This document shows positions 3,100 through 17,632 of a stretch of 64,000 bases of DNA, in pieces. The stretch is from contig JANXYG010000118.1 of the NCBI GenBank assembly GCA_025350245.1, positions 482 to 64,481 on the forward strand. The letters are read 5' to 3'. The first letter of the stretch is position 1; each line of letters opens with the position of its first letter. The translations under genes and the position numbers were made by a program. Origin of the DNA: Betaproteobacteria bacterium. Lineage in GTDB: Bacteria > Pseudomonadota > Gammaproteobacteria > Burkholderiales > Ga0077523. The notes beneath the pieces are model-generated. The model was given only the letters and a program-made list of their open reading frames with translations, was not told the DNA's origin and searched no databases.

Positions 3100-4089
3100 T
3101 TGAAAATTTCCAGACGAGAAAAGAACCGCGGGCAGGTCCGCATCTATCCTGCCCTCGCCGGCTTGGCGCTTGCCATGTCATTCGGCACCTCCCCTTCAGC
3201 CATGGCCGGCGGCGGCGGTACCCCCTTTCCCTCCCAGGGCGACGACACCACCTTCTCGCTGGGGCAATTCCGCATCGCCGTGGACGCGAAGTTCCAGCCG
3301 TTTCTCTCTGGTGCGCCGGGCTACGACAGCACCACGCACAGATTGACCAGCCCCCTCCTGTTCGATCCGTCCACCAAAATCGGCCGAAGCAATCCGATCA
3401 TCGCCGGCAGCGCCGATGATCTGCTCGGGACACCCGTCGGATCCGCCGGCACCATCGTCAAGGATTCAGACCATACGCTGGTGCCTGTGGGCTTCGAGAA
3501 CGCCGGCGACACCACCTCGCGGGAAGTGCATACGCAGATCATCGACTTCAACCTGGGCCGGGGCTCGGGCGGGCCGGCAGTGCGCGCCGGTCTGAGCGCA
3601 CCGGATCGTCCGGCGAGCGTCGGCGAGGTCGAATCGCTCAGTACCAGCGGCAAACCCGACAAGGACTTCTCCGCGCGCAGTTTCTTCGACGTGTTCGTCG
3701 ATGTGGATCTGCCCGGCTTTGGCACCCTGTACAACAAAGCCCCTCTCCTGATCGAAAACGATCTGATCACCGGCTTCCCGCCGACCGTCGTCTACATCCA
3801 TGGCGGGACGAGCGCGATCCCGCTGTTGTTCTCGGCCAACGATCCGAACGGACACTGGTTGAAGGACGACCGCTTCGGGTATCTGGTGCTCGCCGGGCAC
3901 GGGGTCGGGTTTGCCCCTGCAGGACATGGGCATGGCGGCGAGCCGGGCGAGGTAGAGTTCGAAACGGAACTGAATCGTCATGGCGAGTTGCCGATCCCGG
4001 TTCCGGAGCCGTCGTCGGCCCTGCTCCTGGGTATCGGCCTGGCTGCCGTCGGCCTCGCCTATGGCAGGAAGCGTTCGCAGCAGGCCTAG
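3100..4089 (+). CDS. PEP-CTERM sorting-domain protein (secreted, exosortase substrate)
   Basis: In-frame TTG at 3100 with an AAGGAG RBS about 7-8 nt upstream (3089-3094). The signal peptide ends ..LALAMSFGTSPSAMA. The C-terminus PVPEPSSALLLGIGLAAVGLAYGRKRSQQA has PEP, a TM helix and a basic cluster. The long upstream part of the 2677..4089 ORF is not protein-like. Confidence 0.8.
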   Translation: MKISRREKNRGQVRIYPALAGLALAMSFGTSPSAMAGGGGTPFPSQGDDTTFSLGQFRIAVDAKFQPFLSGAPGYDSTTHRLTSPLLFDPSTKIGRSNPIIAGSADDLLGTPVGSAGTIVKDSDHTLVPVGFENAGDTTSREVHTQIIDFNLGRGSGGPAVRAGLSAPDRPASVGEVESLSTSGKPDKDFSARSFFDVFVDVDLPGFGTLYNKAPLLIENDLITGFPPTVVYIHGGTSAIPLLFSANDPNGHWLKDDRFGYLVLAGHGVGFAPAGHGHGGEPGEVEFETELNRHGELPIPVPEPSSALLLGIGLAAVGLAYGRKRSQQA

Positions 4090-4112: not shown

Positions 4113-4145
4113 GCCCCCGGCGCGTTTCGCGCGGGGCTTTTTCTT
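4113..4145 (+). terminator. Rho-independent terminator after the PEP-CTERM gene
   Basis: GC-rich hairpin gcccc(cg)gcgc-gtttc-gcgcggggc followed by tttttcttg, 24 nt after the stop at 4089. It lies between convergent genes. Confidence 0.6.
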
Positions 4146-4189: not shown

Positions 4190-5908
4190 CTAGATGGCGT
4201 TGCCGACCTTCACGCCATCGTGGAATTCGATGTCCTCGAGGCGTCGATGTCGTGTCTCGACACCGAACACGACCATGGCCACGAGCGCGATGGTCATCGA
4301 GATCCCGCCGATGATGGCGATGCCGGCCATCGATGGCGGCGCAATGCCGAACACGACCAGACAAATGATACCGACGCCGCCTGCCTTGCACGCCCCGGCG
4401 TAGAAGCCGGATCCTTTCGCGCGTATCCGGGTCGGGTAGATCTCCGAGCAGTAGACCGACACGACCGCGGTCACCGAATTGATCCCCCAGATCGGGACCA
4501 CCAGCAACCCGTAGAGCAATGCGCGATTGCCCACGATCGCGTCACCCGCCAGCACAAAGCCGAACATGGCAGCCGCAGTGATCGCCGCCAGCAGGACGAT
4601 GGTCTTCTTGCTGCTCCAGAATCCGTACAGCCACGACACCACGAACGTCAACGGAAAGCCGAGCAATGCGGCGTTGCGAAGGATCGTGTCGGCATCGGCC
4701 AGCCCCAGCTTGCGCAGGTTGGTCGGCATCCAGAAATTGAACCCGAACAATATGAAACCGGTGCCGATGCCCAGACTGGCGATGACCAGTGTCAGCGCCA
4801 GATGTGCACGGCTCCAGCGTCGCCACTGGCGCGGAACCGGGTGGTCCGCCTGCCCATCGGGTTGAGCCTGGGTCACCACCGCCGCCCCGTAGCGCCGCAT
4901 CACGGCGCCGGCCTCGTCGATCCGGCCATATGCCAGCAGATACCGAGGAGATTCCGGAATCCAGCGGTTGAGCATGATGAACAGCACGCCGGTGGGCAAG
5001 CCGATCAGCCACAGGATGCGCCAGCTGTAGACCGGCACCAGTTCGGCAGCGATCCAGCTGGTGAGGATGTACGCCCCCGCGATGTCAGCGCCGATCAGTA
5101 CCGACAGCCATCCGCGATGCCGGGCGGGGATGGTTTCGGCAAGCAGCGTATAGGCAATGGGCAACATGCCCCCAACGCCTAGCCCCATCAGGAAACACAT
5201 GGCCACGTTCCAGTAGAAGTCTGGCATGGCCCCGCAAATCGAGGTCGCGATGAAGCTGATCCCGGCGTACAGGATCGAAGCCCTTCTGCCGATCTTGTCG
5301 CCCAGCCATCCCCACACCATGGAACCGATGACCGTGCCGGTGATCCCGGCAAGCGCCAGATAGGCAGCCGGAATGGTCCCCGCCGGATTCAGGGGTGACT
5401 TCAGGCCGTACTCCGCGGTCATGCCGGGAACCACGAAGGCGAGCGAGGTCGGCTTCATGATGTCGATCGTGACGGCCACCGCCATGCTGAGCAGCAGTGC
5501 CACGTGCGCGAAGCTCAACGTCGCGTCGTCGAGGGCAGCCACGCGCAGCGACCGGTCGCCCCTCTTGCCGTCGCCACCGCCCTTCGGGAACAGACCGTAC
5601 AGGCTGACCGCCATCCCCGCGATGATGACGACCATGCCGAGCGTCATCGACCAGTCCATCGGCATGCCGACGAGCCGGTAGCCGTTGTGTCGCCCATGCA
5701 GGTACATCGGCAGGTGCAGCAGCACGCCGGCGATCACGGCGGTCACGCCGATCCAGAAGGCGACGGGGCGATGAAACGTTACGCCACCCAGTTCGCCGGA
5801 TAGGGTCCGAAGACGCCCGAGGGAATCGCGTCGGGTTTCCGGCTTGCGCGTCACGCCATCGACCGGGGGGACCTGCCGTCGCTCAGCATGGCGCACCGTC
5901 GGGCGCAC
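4190..5908 (-). CDS. MFS transporter (putative exporter of the PKS operon)
   Basis: 572-aa ORF with many hydrophobic helices. MFS motif A is GWLGDKIGRRASIL, and there is a sugar-porter-like PESPRYLL. The first codon is GTG at 5908, 6 nt after the UnbU-like stop. The exact start is uncertain (about 60-aa basic N-terminal extension). Confidence 0.8.
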   Translation of the reverse strand: MRPTVRHAERRQVPPVDGVTRKPETRRDSLGRLRTLSGELGGVTFHRPVAFWIGVTAVIAGVLLHLPMYLHGRHNGYRLVGMPMDWSMTLGMVVIIAGMAVSLYGLFPKGGGDGKRGDRSLRVAALDDATLSFAHVALLLSMAVAVTIDIMKPTSLAFVVPGMTAEYGLKSPLNPAGTIPAAYLALAGITGTVIGSMVWGWLGDKIGRRASILYAGISFIATSICGAMPDFYWNVAMCFLMGLGVGGMLPIAYTLLAETIPARHRGWLSVLIGADIAGAYILTSWIAAELVPVYSWRILWLIGLPTGVLFIMLNRWIPESPRYLLAYGRIDEAGAVMRRYGAAVVTQAQPDGQADHPVPRQWRRWSRAHLALTLVIASLGIGTGFILFGFNFWMPTNLRKLGLADADTILRNAALLGFPLTFVVSWLYGFWSSKKTIVLLAAITAAAMFGFVLAGDAIVGNRALLYGLLVVPIWGINSVTAVVSVYCSEIYPTRIRAKGSGFYAGACKAGGVGIICLVVFGIAPPSMAGIAIIGGISMTIALVAMVVFGVETRHRRLEDIEFHDGVKVGNAI

Positions 5909-5914
5909 CGGCCG

Positions 5915-6847
5915 TCACTCCTGCGCCCTCGCCGTCGATCCGATGGCCGGCGTGGCATGGGACGCCTTCGCGAGCCACGAGGTTGCACCGATCAGCGCAC
6001 CGCGGCCAGCGCAGGTGACGCACAGCGAGAAGAACAGGCCGAACACGATGCCGGCGTGCGACATCAACCCGTATACGCTGGCAGTGGCGACGCCGAAGAT
6101 GATCTGCCCCCGTGTGCTGCGCGGCGTCGTGACCGGGTCGCTGATCATGTAGAACGTGAACAGCACGAAAGCCATGCCGCTCATCGGCTCGAGCAGCGTC
6201 GCGAAATCCTGCATCGAGAACAACGAACGCGCCGCCGCCTGTCCGACGAAACCCGCGAGCCAGGCAAGTACCAGGATGATCCGCTTGGTGGCCCGTATGT
6301 TCAGGAAGGAGCCGCTGCACACGATGGCCACCGGGATCACCCAGTCGAGAGCGCCGCTCACATTCTCGGTAAACTGATAGGGCTGTGCCACCCCCACCCA
6401 GTTGCTGAACAGCAGCAGCGTTGCCGCGATCCCGAAGTTGGACGGGTTCATGAAGTGCGTCGTGACGCCCGGCGGCGCGTTCGGCACCGGCACCCGCAAC
6501 AGGACCTTCGAGAAGATCGCGAGCGATGCCGCGAAAGCAACGATCACGAATCGCTCGTTAGTGTAGAGGAGCATGCCTACCGCCAATCCGGTGATGTGGG
6601 CCGGCAGCAGGAACACGACCAGGTGGCGGACACTGCCGCGAAACCGCGCGCGTTGCCAACCGTTGATCGCGAGCTCGATGCCGATTTCAGAAAGATAGGC
6701 CGCGAACACGGCGACCAGCGGCGTGAGCCATGCCTGTTCGAAGCCGAGCCAGGTGTGCCCGAGAACATTGAGCGCCGTGATCGCGATTGCGAAAGGCACT
6801 ATGCCCGGCCGGGGCAACGGCGGTTTGGTGTTCGAGGTCGTGCTCAT
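5915..6847 (-). CDS. UnbU-like polytopic membrane protein (enediyne-cassette E5 type)
   Basis: 310 aa from ATG 6847 (GGGAGAG RBS), inside the spurious 578-aa ORF 5915..7651. About 8-9 hydrophobic helices (..FAIAITALNVLGHTWLGFEQAWLTP..HFMNPSNFGIAATLLLF..FTFYMISDPVTTP..). Its position after the UnbV-like gene matches the conserved cassette. The family call is from recall, not a search. Confidence 0.65.
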   Translation of the reverse strand: MSTTSNTKPPLPRPGIVPFAIAITALNVLGHTWLGFEQAWLTPLVAVFAAYLSEIGIELAINGWQRARFRGSVRHLVVFLLPAHITGLAVGMLLYTNERFVIVAFAASLAIFSKVLLRVPVPNAPPGVTTHFMNPSNFGIAATLLLFSNWVGVAQPYQFTENVSGALDWVIPVAIVCSGSFLNIRATKRIILVLAWLAGFVGQAAARSLFSMQDFATLLEPMSGMAFVLFTFYMISDPVTTPRSTRGQIIFGVATASVYGLMSHAGIVFGLFFSLCVTCAGRGALIGATSWLAKASHATPAIGSTARAQE

Positions 6848-6861
6848 GGACGCTCTCCCGT

Positions 6862-8931
6862 TCAGGGTTGCAGCAATGCAACCACTTGTTGTCCGACGTG
6901 CACCGATTCGAATCGGGCTTCCTTGACACCGGCGCTGCCGGAACGCCACGTGATCAGGAGATCGGCCGTCGTGCCGGCCGGGACACGCCCGAGGCCGATA
7001 TGAATGTCCGGGCTGCGCTTGCCCGAGTGCCCGTTGCCGCCGTCGACCTCGGCCGAGAACACCCGCCCGTCGCTCAATCGGATCGATACCCGGGCGCCCA
7101 GGGCCGGGCGCGACCGGATCCGCACGTCGCTCGCCTCCGCCGCGCTCATGAGGTGCGGTCGCCCACCGGAATCCCCGACCACGAATCGCGGGCTGATGCC
7201 GATGAAGGCGTTCTCGCCGGCGGCGCGCGATGTGTTGTGGTGAAACTCGGGCGCGGCATATTGCCGCGCCTCGATATAGTCGAGACGGCCATCCTGGTCC
7301 GCATCGGCGATGGCCAACCCTCGCGTCGGTGCCGGTGCGCCATGCACCAGATGATGGAGCTGCGGCGAGACGTCGACGAAGCGTCCCGAGGGGCGCATCA
7401 CGAAAAACGGATTGCGGCGCGAGTTGCCGCTCAGGTCGCACCCCAGGCCCGATGTGTCCTGTTCCATGCGGAACCAGGCAGCGGCATGCTTCAACAGGCT
7501 GTCGTTCGAGGTTGCCAGTTCCTGCAACATCGCCCAGCAGCTCTTGCGCCAGACCAATCCGGCGTCGGCATCGCGTCCGCGCACGAACCCCACCGCCTGC
7601 AGGGCCTCGACTTTTCCGTCGTTGTCGAAATCGGCAAGCTTCGCATCCCATGCCCAGCCACTGCGCGACACGCCGTAGGCTTCACTTTCGTCGGAAAACG
7701 GCGCGACGCCCCGCTGCACCAGATCGGTATCGATCTTCCGGCCGTCACTGACGAACAGGAACTGGCTTTCCTGCAGTGCCCACTTCTCGGTGATGTTGCT
7801 CACGTAGATGTCGGGCAGGCCGTCGCCATTCACATCGCCGAAGTCGACGCCCATGCCCTTGAAGGAGTCACGCCCGATGACCTTGGAGCGAGGTTTCGAC
7901 AGGGTGCGCCTGCCCTCGATCATCCGGAACGACACCGGTCCGTCGAGAGGGAAACAGCCGAGTTTCGCGCGCGTGCGGCCGAAACTTTCCTGGGCCCGGG
8001 AGCAGTTCATCAGCATCCGGTCAGGGCCGAAGTCATTGGCGAAGTAGAGGTCCGGAAGGCTGTCGCCGTTCAGGTCCTGGGCGCCGATCGCCAGGGTCCA
8101 GGCGTTCGCTACTTCGGGCGCGAACGGCGCCGGCGCGGCGACGAACAACACCGCCGGCTGCGACCCGCCGGCGGCGGATTTCCACAGGAGGATGCGATTG
8201 GTGCCACCATTGTAGGCGCGCGACATGGAATCCTGCATCACCGGATGCGGGCACACCGGCGCCGTCGTGTTCGCATCGAGGATGCGACCATCGTCGCAAA
8301 AATAGTTGCCGACCACGAGGTCGGCGTGGCCGTCGCCATCGACGTCCGCGAGCAGCGCCGTGTTGGTGAACCATCTCTGCTCGCTCGCGACCGGCACGGC
8401 AACATAGCTGTCCGCACCGGGGCGTTCGCTCGCCGTCGTCGGCCCATGATCGATCCGCAGGAAAGCCACCGGCGGCCGCCCCCAGTAATAGGTGAGCAGA
8501 TCGGCGAGGCCGTCCTCGTTGAGATCGGCGATGAGGCAGCCCATGGGCGCGATGGTGCGCGGATCGGCGGTACCCGCCGGCAACGGCAGCCGGAACGATT
8601 GGTACCGGTCGGTGAGCAGCGCGGCGACCACCACCTGATTGATGCGGGTGTCGACGTAACATGTGTCATCGGGTTTCAGATTGCCGTCCACATCGCCGAT
8701 TGCGGCGGCAGCGCCGACCGACGAAATCCAGGGGCCGATGCGTTGCAGGTCGGGATGCACGTCGCGCGTTTGGCGCGCCGTGAGGCCGAACCGGTTGTCG
8801 AGCGTAGTGCTGCTGAACGAGAACCGTGCCTTCACCTCGGCATCGGACACCGTCTCGCCCGGCAGACCAGCGGCGGCGCCGAGCGAGAACAGGACGGCGA
8901 CGCCTAGAATTCGAGCTCTGAGAACTGACAT
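6862..8931 (-). CDS. UnbV-like / CRTAC1-family secreted FG-GAP repeat protein with a C-terminal ASPIC-UnbV segment
   Basis: 689 aa from ATG 8931 with signal peptide MSVLRARILGVAVLFSLGAAAG. At least 7 FG-GAP/VCBS-type loops: DVDGNLKPDD, DLNEDGLADL, DVDGDGHADLVVGNYF, DLNGDSLPDLYFANDFG, DVNGDGLPDIYVSN, DFDNDGKVE, DADQDGRLDYIE. The C-terminal DGGNGHSGKRSPDIHIGLG resembles the ASPIC/UnbV domain. Confidence 0.75.
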   Translation of the reverse strand: MSVLRARILGVAVLFSLGAAAGLPGETVSDAEVKARFSFSSTTLDNRFGLTARQTRDVHPDLQRIGPWISSVGAAAAIGDVDGNLKPDDTCYVDTRINQVVVAALLTDRYQSFRLPLPAGTADPRTIAPMGCLIADLNEDGLADLLTYYWGRPPVAFLRIDHGPTTASERPGADSYVAVPVASEQRWFTNTALLADVDGDGHADLVVGNYFCDDGRILDANTTAPVCPHPVMQDSMSRAYNGGTNRILLWKSAAGGSQPAVLFVAAPAPFAPEVANAWTLAIGAQDLNGDSLPDLYFANDFGPDRMLMNCSRAQESFGRTRAKLGCFPLDGPVSFRMIEGRRTLSKPRSKVIGRDSFKGMGVDFGDVNGDGLPDIYVSNITEKWALQESQFLFVSDGRKIDTDLVQRGVAPFSDESEAYGVSRSGWAWDAKLADFDNDGKVEALQAVGFVRGRDADAGLVWRKSCWAMLQELATSNDSLLKHAAAWFRMEQDTSGLGCDLSGNSRRNPFFVMRPSGRFVDVSPQLHHLVHGAPAPTRGLAIADADQDGRLDYIEARQYAAPEFHHNTSRAAGENAFIGISPRFVVGDSGGRPHLMSAAEASDVRIRSRPALGARVSIRLSDGRVFSAEVDGGNGHSGKRSPDIHIGLGRVPAGTTADLLITWRSGSAGVKEARFESVHVGQQVVALLQP

Positions 8932-8941
8932 GGTTTTCCGA

Positions 8942-9952
8942 TCAGTTGAAATCGCGGCGCGCGCGCGGCAACGCACCGCACTGCTGCTGAATGGCGAACC
9001 GCCAGCGCTGGTAGGCCCCGATGCTTTCCTCGCCCGCCGGTATGCAGGCAATCGCGATGTCGGCGGCCGACGTCAACGACATGCCCAGCAGTTCGGCACA
9101 CGCGAGTTCCGCATGCGGCACCGGATTCGCGGCTTTCCGCCGCGCCTCCGCGGCAAAGACGATGCCCTGGGCCAGTGCCGGAAAGTGCGCTCCCGCGCGA
9201 TCACGCAGGATGCGCAATGCCTCGGGATCGGTGCTGCCCGCATAGGTTGCCGCGAGCCCCACCCCCGCCCAGAGGTCGGCGCGGCGATCTTCCTCGAACG
9301 TGCCGATGGCCGCAGCCACGGCGACCGGCTCGGCGCCCCGAACGAACCACAGGCTGCGCCCCAGTCCCTGGTCGAAGATGCGCGCGGCATCGGCGTCGAG
9401 GCCGCGCGGTCGGCGCCGGCCGACGATGGATTGTCGCCAGCGGAAGTAGCCCTCGTGAAAGCCGTAGCCGTCGAATGCGAGCCACTTGTTGAGCGAGCGA
9501 TGGCGCGCCAGGGTCCGCATGGGCGACACCGGCATGCGGGCGATGAACCAGCCCAGGCCAACCCACGACATGTAGTCGTGGTGGCTGGCGGCACCGGCGA
9601 TGTAGGCATCGAAAAAATGCTGCCCGGGCGTCATGAAGTCGGCAATTGCCAGGCCCATGGCCGCGCCTTCGTACTCGAAGCCGACATCGGCAGCCGGTCG
9701 GAGCGACAGGGCCTCGGTGAGTTCAGGCAGACTCGCGCACCGCACGGCACGGTTGTAGCCCCAGGCGAAGTGCGCGCCGATGGCTTCGAGGCGCTCGACG
9801 ACCTCGGCACGCTCGACGGTAAAGCCGCGGGTCGAGACCTTCGTCTCCTTGTCGGCCAGACCTGCCACGCGACCGACGAACCCGGCCCAGAGCCGTCGCA
9901 GGGCGGATGGCCTGTCCGCCATCGGGACCGTACCACCGGCGCGGTCATTCAT
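8942..9952 (-). CDS. UnbL-like protein (DUF1702; enediyne-cassette E3 type)
   Basis: 336-aa ORF with ATG at 9952, overlapping the thioesterase stop by 8 nt. Soluble and helical (..VSTRGFTVERAEVVERLEAIGAHFAWGYNRAV..FEYEGAAMGLAI..WLAFDGYGFHEGYF..). The position and size fit the UnbL slot of the cassette. Assignment is from recall. Confidence 0.6.
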   Translation of the reverse strand: MNDRAGGTVPMADRPSALRRLWAGFVGRVAGLADKETKVSTRGFTVERAEVVERLEAIGAHFAWGYNRAVRCASLPELTEALSLRPAADVGFEYEGAAMGLAIADFMTPGQHFFDAYIAGAASHHDYMSWVGLGWFIARMPVSPMRTLARHRSLNKWLAFDGYGFHEGYFRWRQSIVGRRRPRGLDADAARIFDQGLGRSLWFVRGAEPVAVAAAIGTFEEDRRADLWAGVGLAATYAGSTDPEALRILRDRAGAHFPALAQGIVFAAEARRKAANPVPHAELACAELLGMSLTSAADIAIACIPAGEESIGAYQRWRFAIQQQCGALPRARRDFN

Positions 9953-10370
9953 AGTTGCGCACCGCCTTCATCAGCACCGGTGGAATCTCGCACAGATCCC
10001 AGCGGGTGCCTTCGCGCCGCAGGAACTTGATGTCCTGCCGGCCGCGCGCGAGCGTATCGGTCACCGCACTCCTGCGGCTATAGTCGAAATTCAGGCTGAC
10101 CCCGTAGGCGATGAAACGATTCAGGCTCATCCGCACCACCACCTCGTCGAAGGCCGTGAACTCATCGACGAAATCGCAGCTCGCGTGCGCCGTCACCAGA
10201 CGAAGTTCACCGTTCTGCAGCGCTACCAGCGTCTCGGGGGCGTGTTCCCGCAGGAACATCTCGCGACATCGCCCCTGCCAGGAGAAGTAGTTGGTGTAAT
10301 AGACATTGCCCACGAGGTTGGTCTCCTCGAAGGTGACCACGTGGTCCATGTCGAATGTTCGCCTGCTCAT
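9945..10370 (-). CDS. Hot-dog fold (4HBT-type) thioesterase, enediyne TEBC/E10-like
   Basis: 141 aa with ATG 10370 sharing ATGA with the PKS stop. VTFEETNLVGNVYYTNYFSWQGRCREMFLREH is the N-terminal signature I recall for the thioesterases coupled to PKSE. Confidence 0.75.
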   Translation of the reverse strand: MSRRTFDMDHVVTFEETNLVGNVYYTNYFSWQGRCREMFLREHAPETLVALQNGELRLVTAHASCDFVDEFTAFDEVVVRMSLNRFIAYGVSLNFDYSRRSAVTDTLARGRQDIKFLRREGTRWDLCEIPPVLMKAVRNYE

Positions 10371-13300
10371 GCCGGTGTGCTCACGCGCTCGTCGGCAGCC
10401 CGCTGCGCATCGGTGGCGTCCACGAGGCGCGCATCACCGGCCGCCGCGACGCCCTCCACCGCCACGGCCAGCATGGCTGGTCGGGGCGCGTCAGCCGACG
10501 CCAGCTTCAGCAACATGACGGCCATGCGCCGCGATCCTTGGTCGAAGAACCAGACCGGCCCCATGTGCGATGTCTCGACACGCTGGAACGACGTGGTCGC
10601 GAGCTGCCAATCGGCACAGCCGAGCTTGATCAGGCACTCCGACAGGGTCCAGACGATGAGCATCGCGTCCGCGAGGCTCGCAAGCCCCTGCCGCGCCAGG
10701 TGCTCGGCGAACCCGGACCGCGGCTCGCCGAGCATCACGCGCCAATCGTCGATCGGGTAATCCGGCTGGAACTGCAGGTCGACGGCGACCGGTCCCGCCG
10801 TCCGGGCCAGTGCCACTGTCACATCGTTGGCGTGGGACGTGCTCACACTGGCGCCTTCGACGCGAACCGCTCCATCGGGCGCGCGACCGGGATCGACCGG
10901 TCGGCCTAACGCGAGCGAAAGCGCTGCACCGGAACGCCGGTCGCGAGCTTGCCCGAACACGACACCGGCGGTCGCGTCATGCGCGCCGAGTTCATCGACC
11001 GCGAGCCGCACCAGCAGCGGCTGGAGCAACTCGCGCGGGAGCACACATGGCGCTTCCGATGCCGACGCCGCGACCGACCGCAACAACTCCAGTCCGATCC
11101 ATTGCTCGGCCACCATGCCTGCGGCGTCGCAGACCTGGATGTCGAAGACGAATCGCCGGCCGTCGCTGAACGTCTGGCGCGCATCGATCGTGTATTCGAC
11201 GTCGGTGGCGAGGCGGCCGAGCCGGATCGTCGCCGCACCGACCGGCAGCACCACCTGGTGCGGCACGCACATCTGCAGCCCGTGCAACACGGCATCGCGA
11301 AGGGAAAGGTCGCCGGACCAGAGCCGCTGCGGCAACAACGGGCCGTACCAGTCGCTGTTCGGGCCCGGGCCGGTGCGGAACCGGCAATGCGTTGCGCTGA
11401 CCGCGACGACCGTTGCCACGCGGCGGAATCTCGGGCCGTGAAAGCACAAACCCTGGTAAAGCACGCCGGCTGCGGGCACGCCGGGCCCGAGATCATATGC
11501 CCCGGCCATCGGGGTGAACGCCGGTGCAGCCCAGGTCAGGCGGGCGGAGAAGTGAACGACATCGAAACCGGTGGTGTCCGATCGGACCTGGAGGTGAACC
11601 GACCCGTCGGCGCGCACCAAGGCAGCGGTGCGCAACACGAAACGCTGGCCGAGCGTGCACGAGACGGCCTCGCCGATGCTCAATTCTGTGACCACCGGCA
11701 AATCCTGGCGCTCGCAGACGCATTGCCCGGCGCTCACCATGGCTTCGAGGGCACAGACCACCGGGAACACCGGCACGTGGAACGGCGCGTGGTCCCTCAG
11801 GTATCGATCGCCGTCACTGCATATCTCGGCGTCGGCGACCAGTTCGACGCCCGGGTAGAACACCCGCGGACGTTCGAGATACCGATGGGCCTGCAATGGC
11901 CCCAGTTCGGTCGCGGGGTCGATGGTGCGCCCGTATCGCCCGGTCACGATCACGGGCACCTGGCTGCTGTGGCTCAACAATTGGCGCAGGGCATCGATGG
12001 CTTCCGTGCTGTCGATCGGCCGGGTGCCAGCCCGCCGCAGACCGTCGAGAACGCCTTCCAGGCGAACGGCCATGCCGGCCTCGCCCCAGGCGGACCAGCA
12101 GATCGGGATCACCCGGCAGTTCGGCAGATCGCCCGCGACTCGCGAGAGCAGGTTGTTCAACCACTCGTTGGCCAGGGCGTAGTGCGATTCGCCGGCAAGA
12201 CCCAGCTCGCCGATGATGGAGCTGTAGCCGATCACGAGCTCGAGCCGCCGGCACGAAAGATGGGCGAGCAAGTTGTCCAGCGATGCGACCTTGCTTGCGA
12301 CCGTCGCCTTGATCTCGTCCAGCGTGAGTTCGGCCACGCCCGACGGCCGATTGATGCCGGCCGAATGGATCACCGCGCATACCTGACCTGATCCAGCCTC
12401 GATGTCGGCCACGATCGTGCCTGCCTGGGCATCATCGGACAAGTCGCCCCGGTAGTACCGGACATCGCTACCGGCCGCCTGCAAGGTGGCAACCGTGGCC
12501 ACGATCTGGGGATCATCCGCCGGGGTCCGGCCGACCAGGGCGAGGCGGCACTGGAACCGTTGCGCCAGGGCCAGTGCAGTGGCGGCGCCGATGCCCCTCG
12601 CCCCGCCGGTGACCACGACGGTGGTATCTGGTGGCGGCGCCCAGGACGACGGGCATTCCTGCAGTGCTGTCGCCGCAAGCCGCCGCCGCTGCTGCGATCG
12701 ACCGCGCAGGCGCAATTCACTGAAGCCATGGTCGCGTCGCGCGAATTCCACCACGGCGCATTCCAGCGTTGCCGGATCGAGTTGTTCGTATTCGACCACG
12801 CACCACCGGCGGTTCGGCACTTCGGCCGCAATCGAGCGCAGGAATCCGTTGGCAAGCTGCGCGCCCTGCAGCACGAGCAAGCCGGCGCCGTCGGCTGCGG
12901 ACGTCACGCGCATGGCGCACTCCAGCAAAGCCGCAAGCGCATGGTCGGATCCGAGGCTCGGCAATACCAGCAAGAACATGCCGGCACCGCCAACGTCGGG
13001 CGGCGTGCAGAGGCAGGACCGACAGGCGTCCGGAAGCGGCGCGAGTGAATCCTCCAGTGCGACCGGCCACGGCCATCCGGCTATCTCGACCGGGACCACT
13101 TCCGCATCGACCCATCGATGGTCGAACAGACGCAACCAGGGTTCGAGCCCGGCGGGCACCGCATCATCGTCGTCCGGCGCCGAATGCCGCAGGCCGTCGA
13201 GATAGGCCGCGATGTCGTCGAGGGTCGCCTTGGCGAGCTTTGAAAGATCGAAGGGGAGCTGGGCCAGTCCGAGCAGGCGCGCGGTGGTGGCGATGGCGTG

Positions 13301-16213
13301 CCGGGCGCGGATGGAATTCAGGTGCAGGTCACCGAGGAGCCGAAGGTTGCCGTCGAGTCCGCCCGCGCCGAGCCCCGTGACGTCGGCAAGCACCGTGCGC
13401 AAGGCGTCGATGGAGGCGACATCGCTGCGCACGCGCAGGCTCGATCGGTCAGGCATGGCGGGTGTTTCAGCCACGGCGTCCGGCAACGCGACGGGCGCCT
13501 GATCACCGACTGGCAGTCCGCACGGGTTCGCCAGGAACACGGGGTGGTCGTCGATGCCGCAAGGCCGCATCGACCGACCGTCATACAGCGTGTCACGCCC
13601 GAGTTCTCCGCCAAAAGTCCAGAACGCCCCCATGGCCAGCAACATCGACACCGGCGAGTCGGCGAACAACTCGAGGGACAGCGCGTGACCGCCCTTTCGT
13701 TCTGCAACCAATCCGACCAGTGATGCGCTCGCGCCGACCTCGATGACCAGGTCCGCGTCGCCGATCGCGTCCAGCGCGTCTGCGAACTTCACCGGTGCCA
13801 CCACTTGTCGCGCCAGCAGCGTCGGCAGATGCTCAGCCCCGTCGAGCATGATTCCGGTGATGCTGGACACCATGGGCGCGCGCGCCGGCAGCCAGTTCAC
13901 GGTGGCGAGATGGGTCGAGAAAGCATCGCTGGCCGCCTGCATGAGGCGCGAGTGGAATGCCCGCGAGGTCGGCAGGATGTCGGCCGCGATTCTCGCCTCC
14001 GAACACGCCGCCGCAACCGCGTCGATCCGTGTGGTCTCGCCGGCCAGGACGTACCGGTTGGCCCCGTTTTCGCAGGCGAGGTCGACGCCGTGCGCAGCGG
14101 TCAGCGCGATCACACGGTCGCGCGGTGCACGTAACGCGATCATCGCGCCGCGCGCGGCGCTGGCGCTCATCACTTGCCCGCGCGCATCCGCCATCGCACG
14201 AAATGCCGCGACATCGATGCGGCCCGAGGCCAGGAGCGCCGACAATTCACCGAAGCTGTGCCCGAAGACGACTGACGGTTCGATGCCGAACTGCGCGAGC
14301 AGTTGCAGTCCCGCCACGGCAACCTCGCCGAGCAGCGGCTGCACCACTGCGGTGTCGCTCAGGTCGCGTGCCGCCAACGTCGACGCTCGCGAAGCCGCAG
14401 CGGCAAGCGACGGAAAACGAGCCGCCCACGGGCCGGGCGTCATCTGCAGCGGCAGGCCCTGTCCGGGGAAAAGCAGCGCCACCCTGGGGCTGGCGGTGGC
14501 CGGCGCCGACCAGCAGAACCGGGCGCCGATGTGCCGCTGCTTCCCGGTGCGTTCGCGCAGCGATTCGACGGCGGCATCCGCAGCCGTCTGAAGTTCTTGG
14601 GGCGTGGCCGCAACCAGGCTCGCGCGCCAGCACGCCGGATCGGCGGAAGGGTTCAGGGCGAAGGCCAGATCCCCCATCTGCGCGCGGGACAGCGTACGTG
14701 CCCGATTGGCCATCGTCGCGAGCAGGGCTGCAAGGCTGTCGTCATCAACGGCCTGCAACTGGAACAGCTCGCCGGGCAGCAGCGACAGGTCACGCAACGG
14801 CAGCGCCATCGCGGTCGGGTGGTGCGGTTCGGCGTCTTCCGCGCCCTGAATCACCACGTGGCAGTTGACGCCGCCGAAGCCGAACGAATTGACGCCGACA
14901 ACAATCGGCTCGGCGTGCGAGACCAGCTCGGCCCGGGAACGGACGTTCACGCGACGTCCGGTGTCTCCCTGCAGGATGGCATGCGGTATCTCGCAGCCGG
15001 TGGTCGGCGGAATGATCCGCTCGCGACAGATGGCGATGGCCTTGAGCAGGCCGGCCATGCCGGCAGCGGCCTTGGTATGGCCGATGTTGCCCTTGATCGA
15101 ACCCACCGGTATCGGCCGGTCCGGAACCGTAGTGCCCAGGAGTCCGGCAAGACCGGCCAGTTCGACCGGGTCGCCGGTCGGTGTACCGGTGCCATGCGCC
15201 TCGAAATAGTCGGCCGCTGCCGCGGACAGGCCCGCGCGGGCCCACGCGCGTTGCGCAGCCAGCGTCTGGCCTTCGACTGTCGGTCGGGTAAGGGCGCCTT
15301 CCCCGTCGGTCGACATGGCTGCGCCACGCACCCAGGCGAGTACCGGCCAGCGTCGTCGTGCGACGACTTCCTCGGACGCCAGCACCAGGAATCCGCATCC
15401 CTCGCCTGGCCAGAAGCCGTCGGACTTTTCATCGAAGATACGCATCGACTGTCGCGCGAGCGCCCCATTGCGCGCAAAACCCACCAGCTCGAACGGATCA
15501 AGGCTCAAGTCAACGGCACCGACCACGACGCAACCGATGTCGCCCATCGCGAGTCGCTCGAAGGCGGTGACGACCGCCACGAGCGACGAGGCGCAGGCGC
15601 CGTCCACCGTGTGCGCGCCGCCGCGCAGGCCGTGATGGTTGGCGATGCGGCCCGCGATCGTGTTCGACAACCCACCGGCCAGGCTGTCTTCGTCAGGCGC
15701 CGGAAACGGCGCCTTGTAAGCTGCCTCGAGCGCCCTGATGCCGGATTCCGGGATAACCGGTGACTGATCGTCGTTGCGCATGTCGCGAAGCAGGCGCTCG
15801 ACGTAGGGCCAGCGATAGCGCATGAGGTGCGATCGGCTGAACTCGCCGGTCAAGGTATTCGCGACGATCACGGCCGTCGTGTCGCGCTCCGCAGCCATGC
15901 CGGCGGGATCCAGATCCGACAGCGCCCGCGTGGCGACATCGAGCGCGAGCCAGTGAGCCATGTCCGTGCGTTCGAAGGCGGACTCGGGCACGCGAAAGCG
16001 CTCCCGATCGAATCGATAGCCCTCAAGAAGAGCAGCCTCTATGGGATAGATACTGTCAGGCCCTGTGGCTGCGCGGACATAGTCGTCGACAATCAGACGC
16101 TCGGCGGGAATCCGCCGGAAACTGCGCCTGCCGTGCAGCACCGTCGCCCACAACTCCCGGAGCGTTCGCGCATCGGGGAATTCGCACGCTGCCGCTACAA
16201 CCGCCACGTTCAT
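10367..16213 (-). CDS. Iterative type I polyketide synthase of the enediyne PKSE architecture (KS-AT-ACP-KR-DH-PPTase)
   Basis: 1948 aa, ATG 16213 with GGGAGG 9 nt upstream. Motifs in order:
- KS: DGACASS (Cys207), EAHGTGT (His340), KGNIGHT (His379)
- AT: GHSFGE (Ser653), AFHS
- single ACP: LGDLHLNSI (Ser967)
- KR: VVVTGGARGIGAA (1199-1211), SHYALAN (Tyr1345)
- DH: LRDHAPFHVPVFP (His1475)
- C-terminal PPTase-like: VAVDLQ..WTLSECLIK (1809-1863). Confidence 0.9.
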   Translation of the reverse strand: MNVAVVAAACEFPDARTLRELWATVLHGRRSFRRIPAERLIVDDYVRAATGPDSIYPIEAALLEGYRFDRERFRVPESAFERTDMAHWLALDVATRALSDLDPAGMAAERDTTAVIVANTLTGEFSRSHLMRYRWPYVERLLRDMRNDDQSPVIPESGIRALEAAYKAPFPAPDEDSLAGGLSNTIAGRIANHHGLRGGAHTVDGACASSLVAVVTAFERLAMGDIGCVVVGAVDLSLDPFELVGFARNGALARQSMRIFDEKSDGFWPGEGCGFLVLASEEVVARRRWPVLAWVRGAAMSTDGEGALTRPTVEGQTLAAQRAWARAGLSAAAADYFEAHGTGTPTGDPVELAGLAGLLGTTVPDRPIPVGSIKGNIGHTKAAAGMAGLLKAIAICRERIIPPTTGCEIPHAILQGDTGRRVNVRSRAELVSHAEPIVVGVNSFGFGGVNCHVVIQGAEDAEPHHPTAMALPLRDLSLLPGELFQLQAVDDDSLAALLATMANRARTLSRAQMGDLAFALNPSADPACWRASLVAATPQELQTAADAAVESLRERTGKQRHIGARFCWSAPATASPRVALLFPGQGLPLQMTPGPWAARFPSLAAAASRASTLAARDLSDTAVVQPLLGEVAVAGLQLLAQFGIEPSVVFGHSFGELSALLASGRIDVAAFRAMADARGQVMSASAARGAMIALRAPRDRVIALTAAHGVDLACENGANRYVLAGETTRIDAVAAACSEARIAADILPTSRAFHSRLMQAASDAFSTHLATVNWLPARAPMVSSITGIMLDGAEHLPTLLARQVVAPVKFADALDAIGDADLVIEVGASASLVGLVAERKGGHALSLELFADSPVSMLLAMGAFWTFGGELGRDTLYDGRSMRPCGIDDHPVFLANPCGLPVGDQAPVALPDAVAETPAMPDRSSLRVRSDVASIDALRTVLADVTGLGAGGLDGNLRLLGDLHLNSIRARHAIATTARLLGLAQLPFDLSKLAKATLDDIAAYLDGLRHSAPDDDDAVPAGLEPWLRLFDHRWVDAEVVPVEIAGWPWPVALEDSLAPLPDACRSCLCTPPDVGGAGMFLLVLPSLGSDHALAALLECAMRVTSAADGAGLLVLQGAQLANGFLRSIAAEVPNRRWCVVEYEQLDPATLECAVVEFARRDHGFSELRLRGRSQQRRRLAATALQECPSSWAPPPDTTVVVTGGARGIGAATALALAQRFQCRLALVGRTPADDPQIVATVATLQAAGSDVRYYRGDLSDDAQAGTIVADIEAGSGQVCAVIHSAGINRPSGVAELTLDEIKATVASKVASLDNLLAHLSCRRLELVIGYSSIIGELGLAGESHYALANEWLNNLLSRVAGDLPNCRVIPICWSAWGEAGMAVRLEGVLDGLRRAGTRPIDSTEAIDALRQLLSHSSQVPVIVTGRYGRTIDPATELGPLQAHRYLERPRVFYPGVELVADAEICSDGDRYLRDHAPFHVPVFPVVCALEAMVSAGQCVCERQDLPVVTELSIGEAVSCTLGQRFVLRTAALVRADGSVHLQVRSDTTGFDVVHFSARLTWAAPAFTPMAGAYDLGPGVPAAGVLYQGLCFHGPRFRRVATVVAVSATHCRFRTGPGPNSDWYGPLLPQRLWSGDLSLRDAVLHGLQMCVPHQVVLPVGAATIRLGRLATDVEYTIDARQTFSDGRRFVFDIQVCDAAGMVAEQWIGLELLRSVAASASEAPCVLPRELLQPLLVRLAVDELGAHDATAGVVFGQARDRRSGAALSLALGRPVDPGRAPDGAVRVEGASVSTSHANDVTVALARTAGPVAVDLQFQPDYPIDDWRVMLGEPRSGFAEHLARQGLASLADAMLIVWTLSECLIKLGCADWQLATTSFQRVETSHMGPVWFFDQGSRRMAVMLLKLASADAPRPAMLAVAVEGVAAAGDARLVDATDAQRAADERVSTPA

Positions 16214-16352: not shown

Positions 16353-16593
16353 AGTTTTCCTATTGGAGAACTCTCACGATTCGATACATTGGCAACAAAT
16401 CATCGGTCGCCAACTTGCCTTGTGTCAAGCTTTGAAGGTATTCACCTGGCATCCACACGCGGCAGACCTGCGCACGATGCGACGCTGACAGGATGGTCGG
16501 CCATGCGCCTAGTCTGCGCCAGCCCGGGGCCGCAGCGCGCTGATCGTATGGTGGCGCTATCGGGGCAGGGCGTTGCGACCCGCGATGCGCCGC

Positions 16594-16725
16594 TCAGTTC
16601 GTGACTGCTTCCGCCACCCGCGACGTATCGAAGTTCTGCGCCTTCAGCCACTGCGTGAGCACGGTGTCCATGGTGGCGTGGCTGCAGAACCCGTTGCCCA
16701 GTTCCTGCGCCAGCACCTCACCCAT
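16594..16725 (-). pseudogene. Bacteriohemerythrin 3' fragment (last ~43 codons); second copy of the gene at 19497..19919
   Basis: The minus strand reads MGEVLAQELGNGFCSHATMDTVLTQWLKAQNFDTSRVAEAVTN*, aligning with ..KVLAQELGNWFCSHAATMDTMLAQWLKAQNFDTSREGEAVTS* of the full gene. About 5 substitutions plus one 3-nt indel over ~105 nt (16618-16718 vs 19521-19624). An in-frame stop lies just upstream (16756-16758). Confidence 0.8.
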
Positions 16726-16834: not shown

Positions 16835-17632
16835 ATGAAATCGTCAAGTTCTTCCTATCAGGTGGGCACCGCAGTGGCGCTGGCCCTGGCCGCCGCAGTG
16901 GCCGCCGGCCCGGCTCGCGCCGACATCGTGTTGCTGGGTGCGGACTACTTCGCGACCATCCAGCCGACTTTGTTCACGCCGCTCGGTGCCCTTAACCCGC
17001 TGGCTGGGTTGCCCTTCGGCCCCGGCATCACCGACACCATCGTGCACCGCCAGGGTGATTGCTCTCTGGGCCTCGCCGTCGCGGGGTCGAACTGCACCAT
17101 CCCGATCGAGTTGGTGAAGCTGTCGCTGATCAGTACGGTCGACCCGATGGTGCGCCTGCGCGAGTCACCGACGCTTGCCAGCAGCGGGGAGATGACCATC
17201 ATGAGCAACGGCTCGGGCACCGGCGGCACTTTCAATTCGTTCTTCAACGTCTTCTTTGAATTGAGCTTCAACGGCGGCAGCACTTTCACCCCGGAGGGCC
17301 CGCTGCGCTTGTCGTCGTCGGACACCGCCTGGACGACGATCGAACCGCAAACGGGGCTGGTCGACGGTCTGGTTGGCGATCAAAACGCCAACCGCCACAC
17401 CGACAAGGGTGGCAGCTTCGACTTCTACCTCGGGAACGGGAACGGGAACCTCATGAACCTCGTGACGGAGAGGCACCCTGACGGCAGCGTGCACACCGCG
17501 ATCCCCGTCCCCGAGCCGAGCACCTGGGCGCTGTTCGGCCTGGGGTTGGCAGCGATGGCCGGGCTGGTAGGTCGCCGTGCACGCCGCGTGGACGCAGGCC
17601 ATGGGCCTGGCACAGAGCCGCAGCGATCCTGA
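16835..17632 (+). CDS. PEP-CTERM sorting-domain protein
   Basis: ATG 16835 with an AAGGAGA RBS. Signal peptide ..ALALAAAVAAGPARA. C-terminal IPVPEPSTWALFGLGLAAMAGLVGRRARR plus a 14-aa tail. It shares an internal ..SFF[DN]VF[VF][DE][VL].. block with the protein at 3100..4089. Confidence 0.85.
   Translation: MKSSSSSYQVGTAVALALAAAVAAGPARADIVLLGADYFATIQPTLFTPLGALNPLAGLPFGPGITDTIVHRQGDCSLGLAVAGSNCTIPIELVKLSLISTVDPMVRLRESPTLASSGEMTIMSNGSGTGGTFNSFFNVFFELSFNGGSTFTPEGPLRLSSSDTAWTTIEPQTGLVDGLVGDQNANRHTDKGGSFDFYLGNGNGNLMNLVTERHPDGSVHTAIPVPEPSTWALFGLGLAAMAGLVGRRARRVDAGHGPGTEPQRS

Follow-up and report, generated by a model that had tools for sequence, protein, structure and literature searches.

A minimal enediyne polyketide synthase (PKS) cassette composed of E3/E4/E5/E/E10 is the core common to all enediynes, and identities among the known cassettes are 33-69% (PMC5181780). 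The enediyne core derives from the synthase PKSE (E), the thioesterase (TE, E10) and E3-E5 (PMC10760148), and PKSE and TE give a heptaene, the precursor of this core (PMC9992847). The steps carried out by E3, E4 and E5 are the most poorly understood part of core biosynthesis. A listing of 2014 (PMC4480864) already contained cassettes from beyond the actinomycetes, some of them "cassette only" cases and one from a Methylomicrobium genome, and enediyne-type KS domains were mapped across many phyla in 2023 (PMC10308959). The same five genes are found outside Actinobacteria in Methylomicrobium alcaliphilum, Herpetosiphon aurantiacus, Haliangium, Cyanothece and Bacillus.

The DNA studied here (the window) is a stretch of 64,000 nucleotides from a 64.9-kb contig. 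Six minus-strand ORFs of the same direction occupy positions 4190-16213, and an ORF check returned the coordinates that had been given in a preliminary description of this DNA. The best explanation overall, to which we assign a probability of about 0.6, is that a distinct Burkholderiales lineage has here a functional enediyne-type PKS cassette, organized as one operon E-E10-E3-E4-E5-MFS. The window shares with the actinomycete cassettes (sgc, cal, dyn and tnm) the same five families, the PKSE architecture, the TE type, a secreted E4 and a membrane E5, and its identities to actinomycete loci (PKSE 33-40%, E3 39-43%, E4 37-39%, E5 40-49% and TE 43-47%) are within or near the 33-69% range of known cassettes. 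It differs from them in the order E-E10-E3-E4-E5, in translational coupling, in a diderm betaproteobacterial host and in an MFS gene joined to the cassette. While complete enediyne clusters carry genes for cyclisation/tailoring, peripheral moieties and resistance/apoprotein, the window locus has no linked ones. The preliminary description had regarded the locus as the five-gene set conserved in actinomycetes; all five families are present, but their order differs from the canonical one, which had passed unremarked.

Polyunsaturated fatty acid (PUFA) synthases of the PfaA/PfaC type have KS and AT domains related to those of the window PKSE. In contrast to them, the window locus has a single ACP, a C-terminal PPTase and a CalE7-type TE, and no PfaB, PfaC or PfaD partner was found at the locus.

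Operon layout and encoded proteins

The order of genes in the window is E-E10-E3-E4-E5 followed by MFS, and inspection of the sequence showed all five junctions to read as previously described. The PKSE stop and the TE start have a common ATGA (10370-10367), TE and E3 overlap by 8 nt (ATGAATGA, 9952-9945), and gaps of 10, 14 and 6 nt lead from E3 to E4 (ATG at 8931), from E4 to E5 (ATG at 6847) and from E5 to the MFS gene (GTG at 5908). Because the TE start is called differently in metagenome gene calls, giving 141 aa (L086) or, from 21 nt further downstream, 134 aa (L001), the ATGA coupling of TE is likely but not certain. A candidate promoter-like site, a pattern match (10/12) in a consensus scan, lies upstream of the PKSE gene on the minus strand (TTGACA, 18 nt, GATGAT; 16399..16428), and a terminator-like hairpin (4120-4132) is located between the MFS gene and a convergent PEP-CTERM gene.

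The PKSE (10367..16213, minus strand, 1948 aa) is predicted to be an iterative type I PKS with the architecture KS-AT-ACP-KR-DH-PPTase. KS, AT, KR and DH were found by Pfam and carry the active-site motifs DGACASS, HGTGT, NIGHT, GHSFG, TGGARGIG and HYALAN. Since Pfam gave no match for ACP and PPTase even at E <= 10, both were assigned by motif alignment with actinomycete PKSEs, to which the single ACP motif DLHLNSI and the PPTase motifs SxSH, xDLQ and WTLSECLIK (W(T/S)xxECLxK) align. In the Burkholderiales lineage Gln replaces Glu in the PPTase metal-binding motif, and self-activation of the PKSE is therefore not assured. The protein is collinear with PKSEs of canonical cassettes from residue 2 to about 1865 at 33-37% identity, and its linker-AT region has DynE8 as the best PDB match (126 bits, versus 84 for the next). 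The KS region matches a PUFA synthase KS (PDB 6RIW), but the score against the PfaA model TIGR02813, 363.6 bits, is under the cut-off of 1010.1, which speaks against grouping with PUFA synthases, the outcome named beforehand as able to overturn the enediyne assignment.

The TE (E10; 9945..10370, minus strand, 141 aa or 134 aa from the downstream ATG) is a CalE7/DynE7-type hot-dog thioesterase. It matches the solved structures of DynE7, CalE7 and SgcE10 over its whole length with E values of 1.6e-33 to 8e-31, and positions N18 and R36-E37 are conserved.

E3/UnbL (8942..9952, minus strand, 336 aa) belongs to DUF1702 (PF08012, E 5.6e-90) and is predicted to be cytoplasmic and all-alpha; its AlphaFold2 model (pLDDT 92) is entirely helical and has no fold neighbour in PDB at E <= 0.001. 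An alignment of 28 sequences has 46 invariant columns. Weak fold matches of E3 to R2 proteins of ribonucleotide reductase (E about 1, TM 0.15) were dismissed as noise.

E4/UnbV (6862..8931, minus strand, 689 aa) is a putative secreted FG-GAP beta-propeller with a C-terminal UnbV_ASPIC domain (Pfam FG-GAP_3, FG-GAP and UnbV_ASPIC), and its single hydrophobic segment is N-terminal (residues 3-21). Its identity is 63-73% within the Burkholderiales lineage, except for a Hydrogenophaga locus (L090) at 41%, and 37-49% to loci outside the lineage. E5/UnbU (5915..6847, minus strand, 310 aa) is a polytopic membrane protein with at least six hydrophobic segments and is distantly RnfD/NqrB-like (PF03116, NQR2_RnfD_RnfE, 29.5 bits against a cut-off of 27.7). 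It is 40-58% identical to other loci, actinomycete ones included, and in 65 sequences H131, NPSN134-137 and PPYxFTEN are conserved; a search of E5 for SGAT, the flavin-attachment motif of RnfD/NqrB, did not find it. The family assignments in the preliminary description (hot-dog TE, UnbL, UnbV and UnbU) are borne out by Pfam and PDB searches, its enediyne-type PKS by the domain set, motifs, collinearity and DynE8 match described above, and its UnbV signal peptide and polytopic UnbU by the patterns of hydrophobic segments.

The MFS transporter (4190..5908, minus strand, 572 aa; Pfam MFS_1 and Sugar_tr) has about 14 hydrophobic segments, two of them extra at the N-terminus. Its best NCBIfam matches are an aromatic acid/H+ symporter family (109.6 bits) and sugar-porter families, all under the cut-offs, and it is not a member of the DHA1/DHA2 drug-efflux subfamily models of NCBIfam, with the efflux models EmrB and DHA2 giving 22-36 bits against cut-offs of 230-925. 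An MFS gene is in the operon, but the "pump" of the preliminary description is unproven; because the likeness is to importer-type families, export is an assumption. The MFS gene is found 3' of E5 also in L007 and L088 at 69-70% identity.

As judged by these searches and alignments, the five cassette families are present and intact and their catalytic motifs are conserved. Comparison with the copy in L086 (95-97% protein identity) gave dN/dS of 0.12-0.35 for each of the six genes, and at this level of comparison all six are under purifying selection.

Distribution, lineage and genomic setting

The comparison set was composed of 80 cassette loci, actinomycete ones included, and nine actinomycete loci served for comparisons of flanks and of the secreted protein CAP described below. 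In a genome scan, relatives of E3 were detected in at least 576 species-level genomes of many phyla, and the cassette was found in hundreds of species of Acidobacteriota, Planctomycetota, Verrucomicrobiota, Cyanobacteria and Proteobacteria, which widens its range to hundreds of species beyond actinomycetes. The stand-alone cassette is therefore present as first described, but with these numbers and the listing of 2014 it is neither rare nor a newly recognised class.

The canonical order E3-E4-E5-E-E10 is present in at least 48 surveyed loci, and sampled non-actinomycete loci keep it, unlike the Burkholderiales locus of the window. Among the surveyed loci, the order E-E10-E3-E4-E5 is confined to the Burkholderiales lineage, where the unit occurs with unrelated flanks in Rugamonas, Hydrogenophaga luteola, Ideonella and Burkholderiales MAGs. 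The survey of relatives proposed in the preliminary description thus recovered the same five-gene order in several Burkholderiales and the MFS gene in three divergent members of the lineage. PKSE identity within the lineage is 40-52%, and gene order and coupling are retained. The window lineage is related to Rugamonas and Hydrogenophaga, which are culturable genera.

In a KS-AT tree constructed without a PUFA synthase outgroup and rooted at the midpoint only, the Burkholderiales PKSE lineage is the most divergent and is parted from all other PKSEs by the root, so that the window PKSE, unlike those of actinomycetes, branches outside all canonical-order cassettes. Methylotuvimicrobium (L010), Herpetosiphon (L063), cyanobacterial, Acidobacteriota and Planctomycetota loci, all of canonical order, cluster with one another and with actinomycetes, away from the Burkholderiales lineage. 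On this tree the locus is assigned to a separate, deep-branching Burkholderiales cassette lineage. Because this PKSE lineage is the most divergent, its chain length or product could differ from those of other cassettes.

Hfq of the window falls in a 90%-identity cluster, the named members of which are betaproteobacterial plus one partial Providencia protein, and its S18 falls in a cluster of S18 proteins of Burkholderiales MAGs plus LptA-named proteins. Since the membership of these clusters is mixed, the placement of the host is suggestive; the betaproteobacterial origin proposed before agrees with them, while "chromosome" was an inference. The identical operon is present in several SRA assemblies. 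Its GC content is 0.655-0.688, core-like as had been claimed, and that of the adjoining 2-4 kb and 16-20 kb is about 0.62. Flanking genes encode PEP-CTERM proteins, an IS1595 transposase fragment, Uma2, hemerythrin and DnaB. When the window ORFs outside 4190-16213 were compared with the ORFs lying up to 10 kb from the cassettes of nine actinomycete loci and of Herpetosiphon, no match was found. The claim that tailoring and resistance genes are absent accordingly stands for homologues of these flanks in the 64-kb window; tailoring genes may be located in other parts of the genome, of which the contig covers only some 65 kb.

Predicted product and competing explanations

By analogy with actinomycete enzymes, the PKSE would phosphopantetheinylate its own ACP and then, from acetyl- and malonyl-CoA, iteratively assemble a conjugated polyene bound to this ACP. 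The chain would be freed by the hot-dog TE, with decarboxylation to a C15 heptaene, and E3 in the cytoplasm, E5 in the inner membrane and E4 in the periplasm may turn the heptaene into linear conjugated polyynes, possibly halogenated. The MFS protein might help to move or handle the product in the envelope. In a paper of 2024, the actinomycete five-gene cassette alone was reported to give iodoheptaene, diiodotetrayne and pentaynes. The earlier statement that the product of such a cassette is unknown is outdated for actinomycete cassettes in view of that report, but holds for non-actinomycete ones, for which no product is on record in the searched literature. Since cyclisation, tailoring and resistance genes are not nearby, we consider a linear C15 hydrocarbon, either a polyene or a polyyne, to be the most likely end product, handled in the envelope, rather than a mature 9- or 10-membered enediyne. 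A coupled operon of six genes without tailoring genes is simpler for studies of E3-E5 function than actinomycete clusters of at least 60 genes.

It is rather unlikely that the pathway ends at the polyene, which would serve as a pigment or envelope lipid, protective like aryl polyenes, with E3-E5 acting in membrane insertion, transport or modification and not in alkyne formation. Such an end point is in keeping with the sufficiency of PKSE and TE for the heptaene (PMC9992847), with E4 and E5 being envelope proteins, with the association of the cassette with surface PEP-CTERM proteins in diderm phyla and with E3 having no recognisable catalytic fold. E3-E5 are, however, orthologous (37-58% identity) to the proteins of core formation in actinomycetes. 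The reported formation of polyynes by the actinomycete cassette alone also argues for a role of these proteins beyond the polyene. We regard as unlikely, too, that a complete but split enediyne pathway has its core here and its cyclisation, tailoring and self-resistance genes elsewhere in the genome, and that a true 9- or 10-membered enediyne is made. All enediynes have these five genes as their core (PMC5181780), and no more than about 65 kb of this genome can be inspected; nevertheless, the flanks of six independent relatives are unlike each other and unlike actinomycete clusters, the unit travels compactly as a cassette without a linked apoprotein or resistance gene, and enediynes are unreported from these phyla (PMC10308959).

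The midpoint-root split of the lineage from other PKSEs and the PUFA-synthase-like N-terminus of the KS (6RIW match, 363 bits with the PfaA model) would suit a chain that differs in length or in its pattern of reduction, such as a PUFA-like lipid or some other lipid, the likeness to enediyne synthases being only ancestral. This is very improbable in view of the single ACP with C-terminal PPTase and the CalE7-type TE, which are PKSE hallmarks that PfaA-type enzymes do not have, of a PfaA score far under the cut-off, and of the co-divergence of E3-E5 with the PKS. The least credible explanation is a silent or decaying passenger, i.e., a horizontally acquired operon without current function. The operon does lie in a variable stretch with low-GC flanks, next to the IS1595 transposase fragment and the Uma2 gene, and a group II intron reverse transcriptase adjoins the Hydrogenophaga copy. 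All six ORFs, one of them of 5.8 kb, are nonetheless intact, the low dN/dS values and the conserved catalytic motifs do not suit decay, and an old, internally diverse lineage has kept its order and coupling. The functional, distinct cassette remains our preferred reading of the locus.

The secreted neighbour CAP

The gene of a cassette-associated secreted protein, designated CAP (16835..17632, plus strand, 265 aa), is divergent from the PKSE gene, and a 620-bp gap lies between them. CAP is predicted to have an N-terminal signal peptide, a beta domain of about 200 aa with two conserved Cys, and a PEP-CTERM anchor with PEP motif, hydrophobic helix and basic tail, ending in VPEPSTWALFGLGLAAMAGLVGRRARR (PF07589, 28.6 bits with a cut-off of 20.7; TIGR02595, 24.1 bits with a cut-off of 16). 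With an HMM of the CAP domain built without signal peptide and anchor, ORFs were matched in 37 of the 80 cassette loci, and 32 of these ORFs are less than 600 bp from a cassette gene; beside the cassettes of the nine actinomycete loci the domain was found in none. We therefore propose CAP as a previously unnamed secreted family and a candidate sixth component of the cassette in non-actinomycete phyla. The preliminary description had treated the PEP-CTERM genes on both sides as the bounds of the operon: the motifs are present in both, but the one at 16835 is found next to such cassettes again and again and is more than a boundary. The other one (3100..4089, plus strand), which is convergent with the MFS gene, is kept only in the 95%-identical relative L086, is absent in L007 and L088, and is probably context and not part of the cassette system.

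The Rugamonas and Hydrogenophaga cassettes have no CAP gene, and of four close CAP homologues on long contigs, three are without a cassette within 10 kb. The core segment of CAP is also present as 5-15 tandem repeats in giant proteins. Among ten other cassette-linked proteins, none reached a curated PEP-CTERM family. A match of CAP to the NCBIfam model EDSAP-1 over 120 residues, at 28 bits against a cut-off of 100, was not taken to mean "enediyne synthase-associated", this expansion of the acronym being uncertain.

DynF/Sgd15 of the dynemicin and sungeidine pathways is an eight-stranded beta-barrel with bound palmitate and has been proposed to hold the heptaene or polyene. The AlphaFold2 model of CAP (pLDDT 85) is all beta, and a Foldseek search among 350,542 chains placed DynF (6UBL) first, at a non-significant level (E 0.41, prob 0.63, TM 0.34/0.41), with prob <= 0.13 for the remaining matches. 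By sequence, two CAP-domain profiles (A2 and A3) gave no match to DynF at E <= 10 among PDB sequences. Both proteins are all-beta and of similar size, and their genes are next to enediyne-type cassettes; CAP, however, is predicted to be exported and PEP-CTERM-anchored, whereas the DynF paper mentions no signal peptide and DynF is soluble in E. coli. More speculatively, CAP might bind the product and serve to carry the chain, which is hydrophobic and reactive; the family offers a testable idea on the handling of such a product outside the cell.

A wider proposal, which we put forward tentatively and hold to be possible but doubtful, is that the "enediyne" cassette of diderms is a six-part envelope system and not an antibiotic remnant, with the chain loaded onto secreted beta-domain proteins, and that actinomycete enediynes arose later as an elaboration of this widespread system. 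In the cytoplasm, PKSE and TE would then produce the conjugated C15 chain, and its processing by E3, E5 and E4 would extend through the inner membrane into the periplasm; the carriers, either PEP-CTERM-anchored single domains or giant multi-repeat forms, may be structurally akin to DynF, and the outcome may be a surface-displayed chromophore or warhead.

A supposed remnant of an HTH regulator in the 620-bp gap upstream of PKSE was discarded, because tblastn gave only E 3.2 at 16736-16662. In three other loci (L088, L092 and L094), a small HTH gene is divergently paired with a PEP-CTERM gene.

Identity of the cassette and its gene order

The cassette finding is real and the cassette has been correctly identified, while its class is already known in outline. 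The window holds a Burkholderiales variant of its own, in which the gene order is rearranged and tightly coupled, an MFS gene is linked, and a recurrent, undescribed secreted partner lies alongside. All six co-directional minus-strand open reading frames listed in the preliminary description were found at 4190-16213: PKS (10367-16213, 1948 aa), thioesterase (9945-10370, 141 aa), E3 or UnbL (8942-9952, 336 aa), E4 or UnbV (6862-8931, 689 aa, from ATG 8931), E5 or UnbU (5915-6847, 310 aa, from ATG 6847) and the MFS gene (4190-5908, 572 aa, from GTG 5908). Direct reading of the junctions bore out every detail reported for them, with ATGA at 10370-10367, the thioesterase/E3 overlap ATGAATGA at 9952-9945 and gaps of 10, 14 and 6 nt. 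The thioesterase start varies between a 141-aa and a 134-aa form among gene calls made independently on metagenome contigs that are identical or nearly so. As pattern matches only, a promoter-like site (TTGACA-18 nt-GATGAT, 16428-16399) was found within the 620-bp stretch that precedes the PKS gene, and the interval separating the MFS gene from the PEP-CTERM gene convergent with it contains a hairpin with a T-run after it.

The KS, AT, KR and DH domains of the PKS were recognized by Pfam; its ACP and C-terminal phosphopantetheinyl transferase gave no Pfam match, even at E <= 10. When the protein was aligned with 15 PKSs of other cassettes, including actinomycete ones, the ACP motif DLH(L/M)(N/S)S(I/L) proved to be conserved, and SxSH, CD(I/V)E and W(T/S)xxEC(L)xK were seen for the transferase. 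Residues 2 to about 1865 are collinear in one piece with the PKSEs that canonical cassettes encode; the identity of 33-37% falls inside the 33-69% range among known enediyne PKS cassettes (PMC5181780). For the linker-AT region, the enediyne synthase DynE8 was the top solved-structure match by a wide margin (126 bits, versus 84 for the next), whereas the PKS scored 363 bits on the PUFA synthase model TIGR02813, for which the cut-off is 1010. The thioesterase matches DynE7, CalE7 and SgcE10 over its full length (E about 1e-33 to 1e-31). At PKSE residues ~1805-1812 (within 10367-11100, minus strand) the CD(I/V)E motif reads VDLQ; Gln replaces Glu in most members of the Burkholderiales clade, and Glu is kept in all other cassettes sampled.

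E3 is a DUF1702 protein (302 bits, Pfam), E4 combines FG-GAP repeats with UnbV_ASPIC and has one hydrophobic segment, at the N-terminus, and E5 is polytopic and lies barely above the Pfam threshold for RnfD/NqrB. In 65 E5 sequences, H131, NPSN and PPYxFTEN are kept, and the RnfD/NqrB flavin-attachment motif is absent. Since Pfam, motif and solved-structure matches agree with them, the family assignments first made for the PKS, the thioesterase and E3-E5 are right. The E3 model is confident (pLDDT 92, pTM 0.90) and all-helical. The PDB gave no neighbour for it at E <= 0.001, and no TM exceeded 0.26; judged from this model, solved structures appear to include no example of the fold. There is no mechanism to borrow for E3.

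Distribution and the Burkholderiales variant

The class is far commoner than was assumed in the preliminary description. More than 2000 E3 relatives were found among the candidates scored in a protein collection, the named ones including Rugamonas, Telluria, Hydrogenophaga, Methylotuvimicrobium, Methylothermus and Planctomycetaceae, and scanning a single genome for each species gave at least 576 stretches encoding an E3 relative. The best 80 of these were surveyed as loci and come from Acidobacteriota, Planctomycetota, Verrucomicrobiota, Cyanobacteria, Methylococcales, Burkholderiales, Rhodocyclaceae, Armatimonadota, Chloroflexi and actinomycetes; PKSE, thioesterase, E4 and E5 adjoin E3 in nearly all of them with enough sequence. 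In 2014, 7 of 61 known cassettes were already outside Actinomycetales, including those of Methylomicrobium alcaliphilum and Herpetosiphon, and the same survey had a "cassette only" category (PMC4480864); the Herpetosiphon locus was recorded in 2011 (PMC3368417). No compound is known from any non-actinomycete cassette (PMC10308959).

The canonical order E3-E4-E5-E(-E10) was found in at least 48 of the best 80 loci. The window has E-E10-E3-E4-E5, an order common to its 95%-identical relative, Rugamonas sp. A1-17, Hydrogenophaga luteola, an Ideonella MAG (L007), a Burkholderiales MAG (L006) and two metagenome contigs (L088 and L094). In a neighbour-joining KS-AT tree (60 sequences, 923 columns, midpoint-rooted without an outgroup), the sampled members with this order form one clade apart from all other cassettes, including actinomycete ones, and other Proteobacteria, a Rhodocyclaceae MAG and Methylococcales, group with canonical-order cassettes. 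All five cassette proteins have higher similarity inside the clade than outside it, and therefore the cassette diverged as a unit. The flanks are wholly different between clade members (phosphoglucose isomerase, phospholipase D, group II intron reverse transcriptase with RadC, and others), a pattern of sequence that fits a compact mobile unit.

The same MFS gene also follows E5 in L007 and L088, with 69-70% identity. Since the E3 proteins of these divergent loci are only 53-59% identical to that of the window, the linkage is conserved. The "MFS pump" proposed earlier stands as an MFS gene in the operon; "pump" is still an assumption. Aromatic-acid/H+ symporter and sugar-porter families match the protein best, none of them reaching its cut-off, scores on drug-efflux models are very low, and there are two extra N-terminal hydrophobic segments. 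In Rugamonas sp. A1-17 (L089:14022-16822), E5 is followed by co-directional genes of 102, 124, 387 and 309 aa, and in Hydrogenophaga luteola (L090:14121-19579) by genes of 399, 129, 327, 42 and 753 aa, with no MFS gene in either. These genes, which may be alternative accessory genes, match no Pfam family at normal strength, and the 399-aa one has a faint TPR_16 match.

A secreted PEP-CTERM protein beside the cassette

The PEP-CTERM gene at 16835-17632 (plus strand), divergent from the PKS, had been described as bounding the operon, but its domain recurs beside cassettes. Its product of 265 aa, here called CAP (cassette-associated secreted protein), combines a signal peptide and a PEP-CTERM anchor with a ~200-aa domain in which two Cys are conserved. 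Homologues with 52-54% identity lie directly upstream of PKSE in L007 and L088, another is in L094, and the one that L006 carries directly upstream of PKSE is more distant, seen by the domain HMM only (109 bits). This HMM, built from the domain alone with signal peptide and anchor left out and iterated on the loci, matches open reading frames in 37 of the best 80 loci, 32 of these 37 matches lying no more than 600 bp away from a cassette gene; the matches include 26 of 44 non-actinomycete loci of at least 18 kb and none of nine actinomycete loci. At trusted cut-offs the domain falls outside all Pfam and NCBIfam families. A full HMMER search (E <= 1e-10) gave 976 clusters at 50% identity, and many of the proteins are 1000-4400 aa long with 5-15 repeats of a core of ~70 residues. 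The link to the cassette is not absolute: no CAP gene was found at the Rugamonas and Hydrogenophaga cassettes, and of four close CAP homologues whose contigs are long, three, one of them from Candidatus Accumulibacter, lack a cassette within 10 kb.

Six cyanobacterial loci (L008, L009, L011, L013, L015 and L049) carry a tandem array of two to six PEP-CTERM genes between E4 and E5, their products being about 250-310 aa long, and several of these inserts are CAP-domain paralogues. In Verrucomicrobiota-type loci (L050:3498-9932, L052:1419-9875 and L025:2-3145), a giant protein (1048 to 2819 aa) in which the CAP domain core is repeated 3-12 times is encoded directly upstream of E3. The PEP-CTERM proteins encoded directly upstream of E3 in Methylococcales (L010:8836-9915 and L014:5622-6413) were not recognized by the CAP-domain HMM (E > 1), and therefore more than one PEP-CTERM family occupies this position.

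The AlphaFold2 model of CAP (pLDDT 85) consists of beta structure only, and its long strands number about eight. Among 350,542 PDB chains its rank 1 match was DynF, at a non-significant level (E 0.41, prob 0.63, TM 0.34/0.41); all other matches had prob <= 0.13, and two profiles gave no link between CAP and DynF by sequence. DynF of the dynemicin pathway is an eight-stranded barrel, with its own fold, which was crystallised with palmitate and proposed as the holder of the PKSE heptaene, and sungeidine production requires its orthologue Sgd15 (PMC8725005). The likeness of the modelled CAP to DynF is a lead, not a result.

Probable products and genomic surroundings

The observed part of the mechanism consists of gene content, motifs, topology, synteny and selection. 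By analogy with characterised actinomycete enzymes, the PKS would activate its own ACP and build a conjugated polyene, which the thioesterase would free to give a C15 heptaene, the precursor of enediyne cores (PMC9992847). E3-E5, which participate in enediyne core formation (PMC10760148), would by the same analogy act here as in actinomycetes. Because nothing else is linked, the operon would stop at a linear polyene or polyyne, which are the most likely end products on this analogy. A 2024 paper reportedly obtained iodoheptaene, diiodotetrayne and pentaynes from the actinomycete cassette by itself. Processing of the linear products of the operon would take place at the inner membrane and in the periplasm; the MFS protein would move them, and CAP might perhaps hold them.

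A pathway making only a polyene pigment or lipid is an unlikely reading of the five-gene cassette, though the foremost of the alternatives. Slightly less probable is a full enediyne pathway split between loci. The window is part of a 64.9-kb contig, to which extent the genome is seen, and open reading frames elsewhere in the 64 kb bear no resemblance to those lying up to 10 kb from the cassette at nine actinomycete loci and in Herpetosiphon; the earlier remark that nothing else typical of enediyne clusters is present therefore holds for the window. We give very little weight to a different chain product of the PKS, and least of all to a silent passenger, the dN/dS of each gene against the 95%-identical copy being 0.12-0.35. 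The operon is mainly of value as a simple system for working out the roles of E3-E5 and for finding products of cassettes in Gram-negative bacteria.

The operon resembles the core in GC, as first described (both 0.65-0.69), versus about 0.62 in the immediate flanks. Hfq and S18 fall in 90%-identity clusters in which the members named Hfq and S18 come mostly from betaproteobacterial MAGs, including Burkholderiales. On the MFS side lies the convergent PEP-CTERM gene (3100-4089, plus), and further open reading frames there have no Pfam match. This gene and the one at 2044-2358 (minus) end in PEP-CTERM-like tails, making three such genes within 16 kb; neither is conserved beside the cassette beyond the 95%-identical relative. 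The gap between PKSE and the divergent PEP-CTERM gene contains a 44-codon open reading frame (16595-16730, minus), at the position where relatives have an HTH_23/28/29 gene paired with a PEP-CTERM gene; similarity between the two is non-significant (E 3.2). On the PKS side, an IS1595-family (ISXO2-like) transposase fragment (17839-18462, plus), a Uma2-family gene for a putative endonuclease (18851-19369, minus) and a hemerythrin gene (19497-19961, minus), together with the lower GC, suggest a variable insertion region between the cassette and dnaB (19958-22402, minus). The latter encodes the replicative helicase (814 aa) with an intein, in which Intein_splicing and LAGLIDADG_3 (homing endonuclease) domains lie between the DnaB_C halves.
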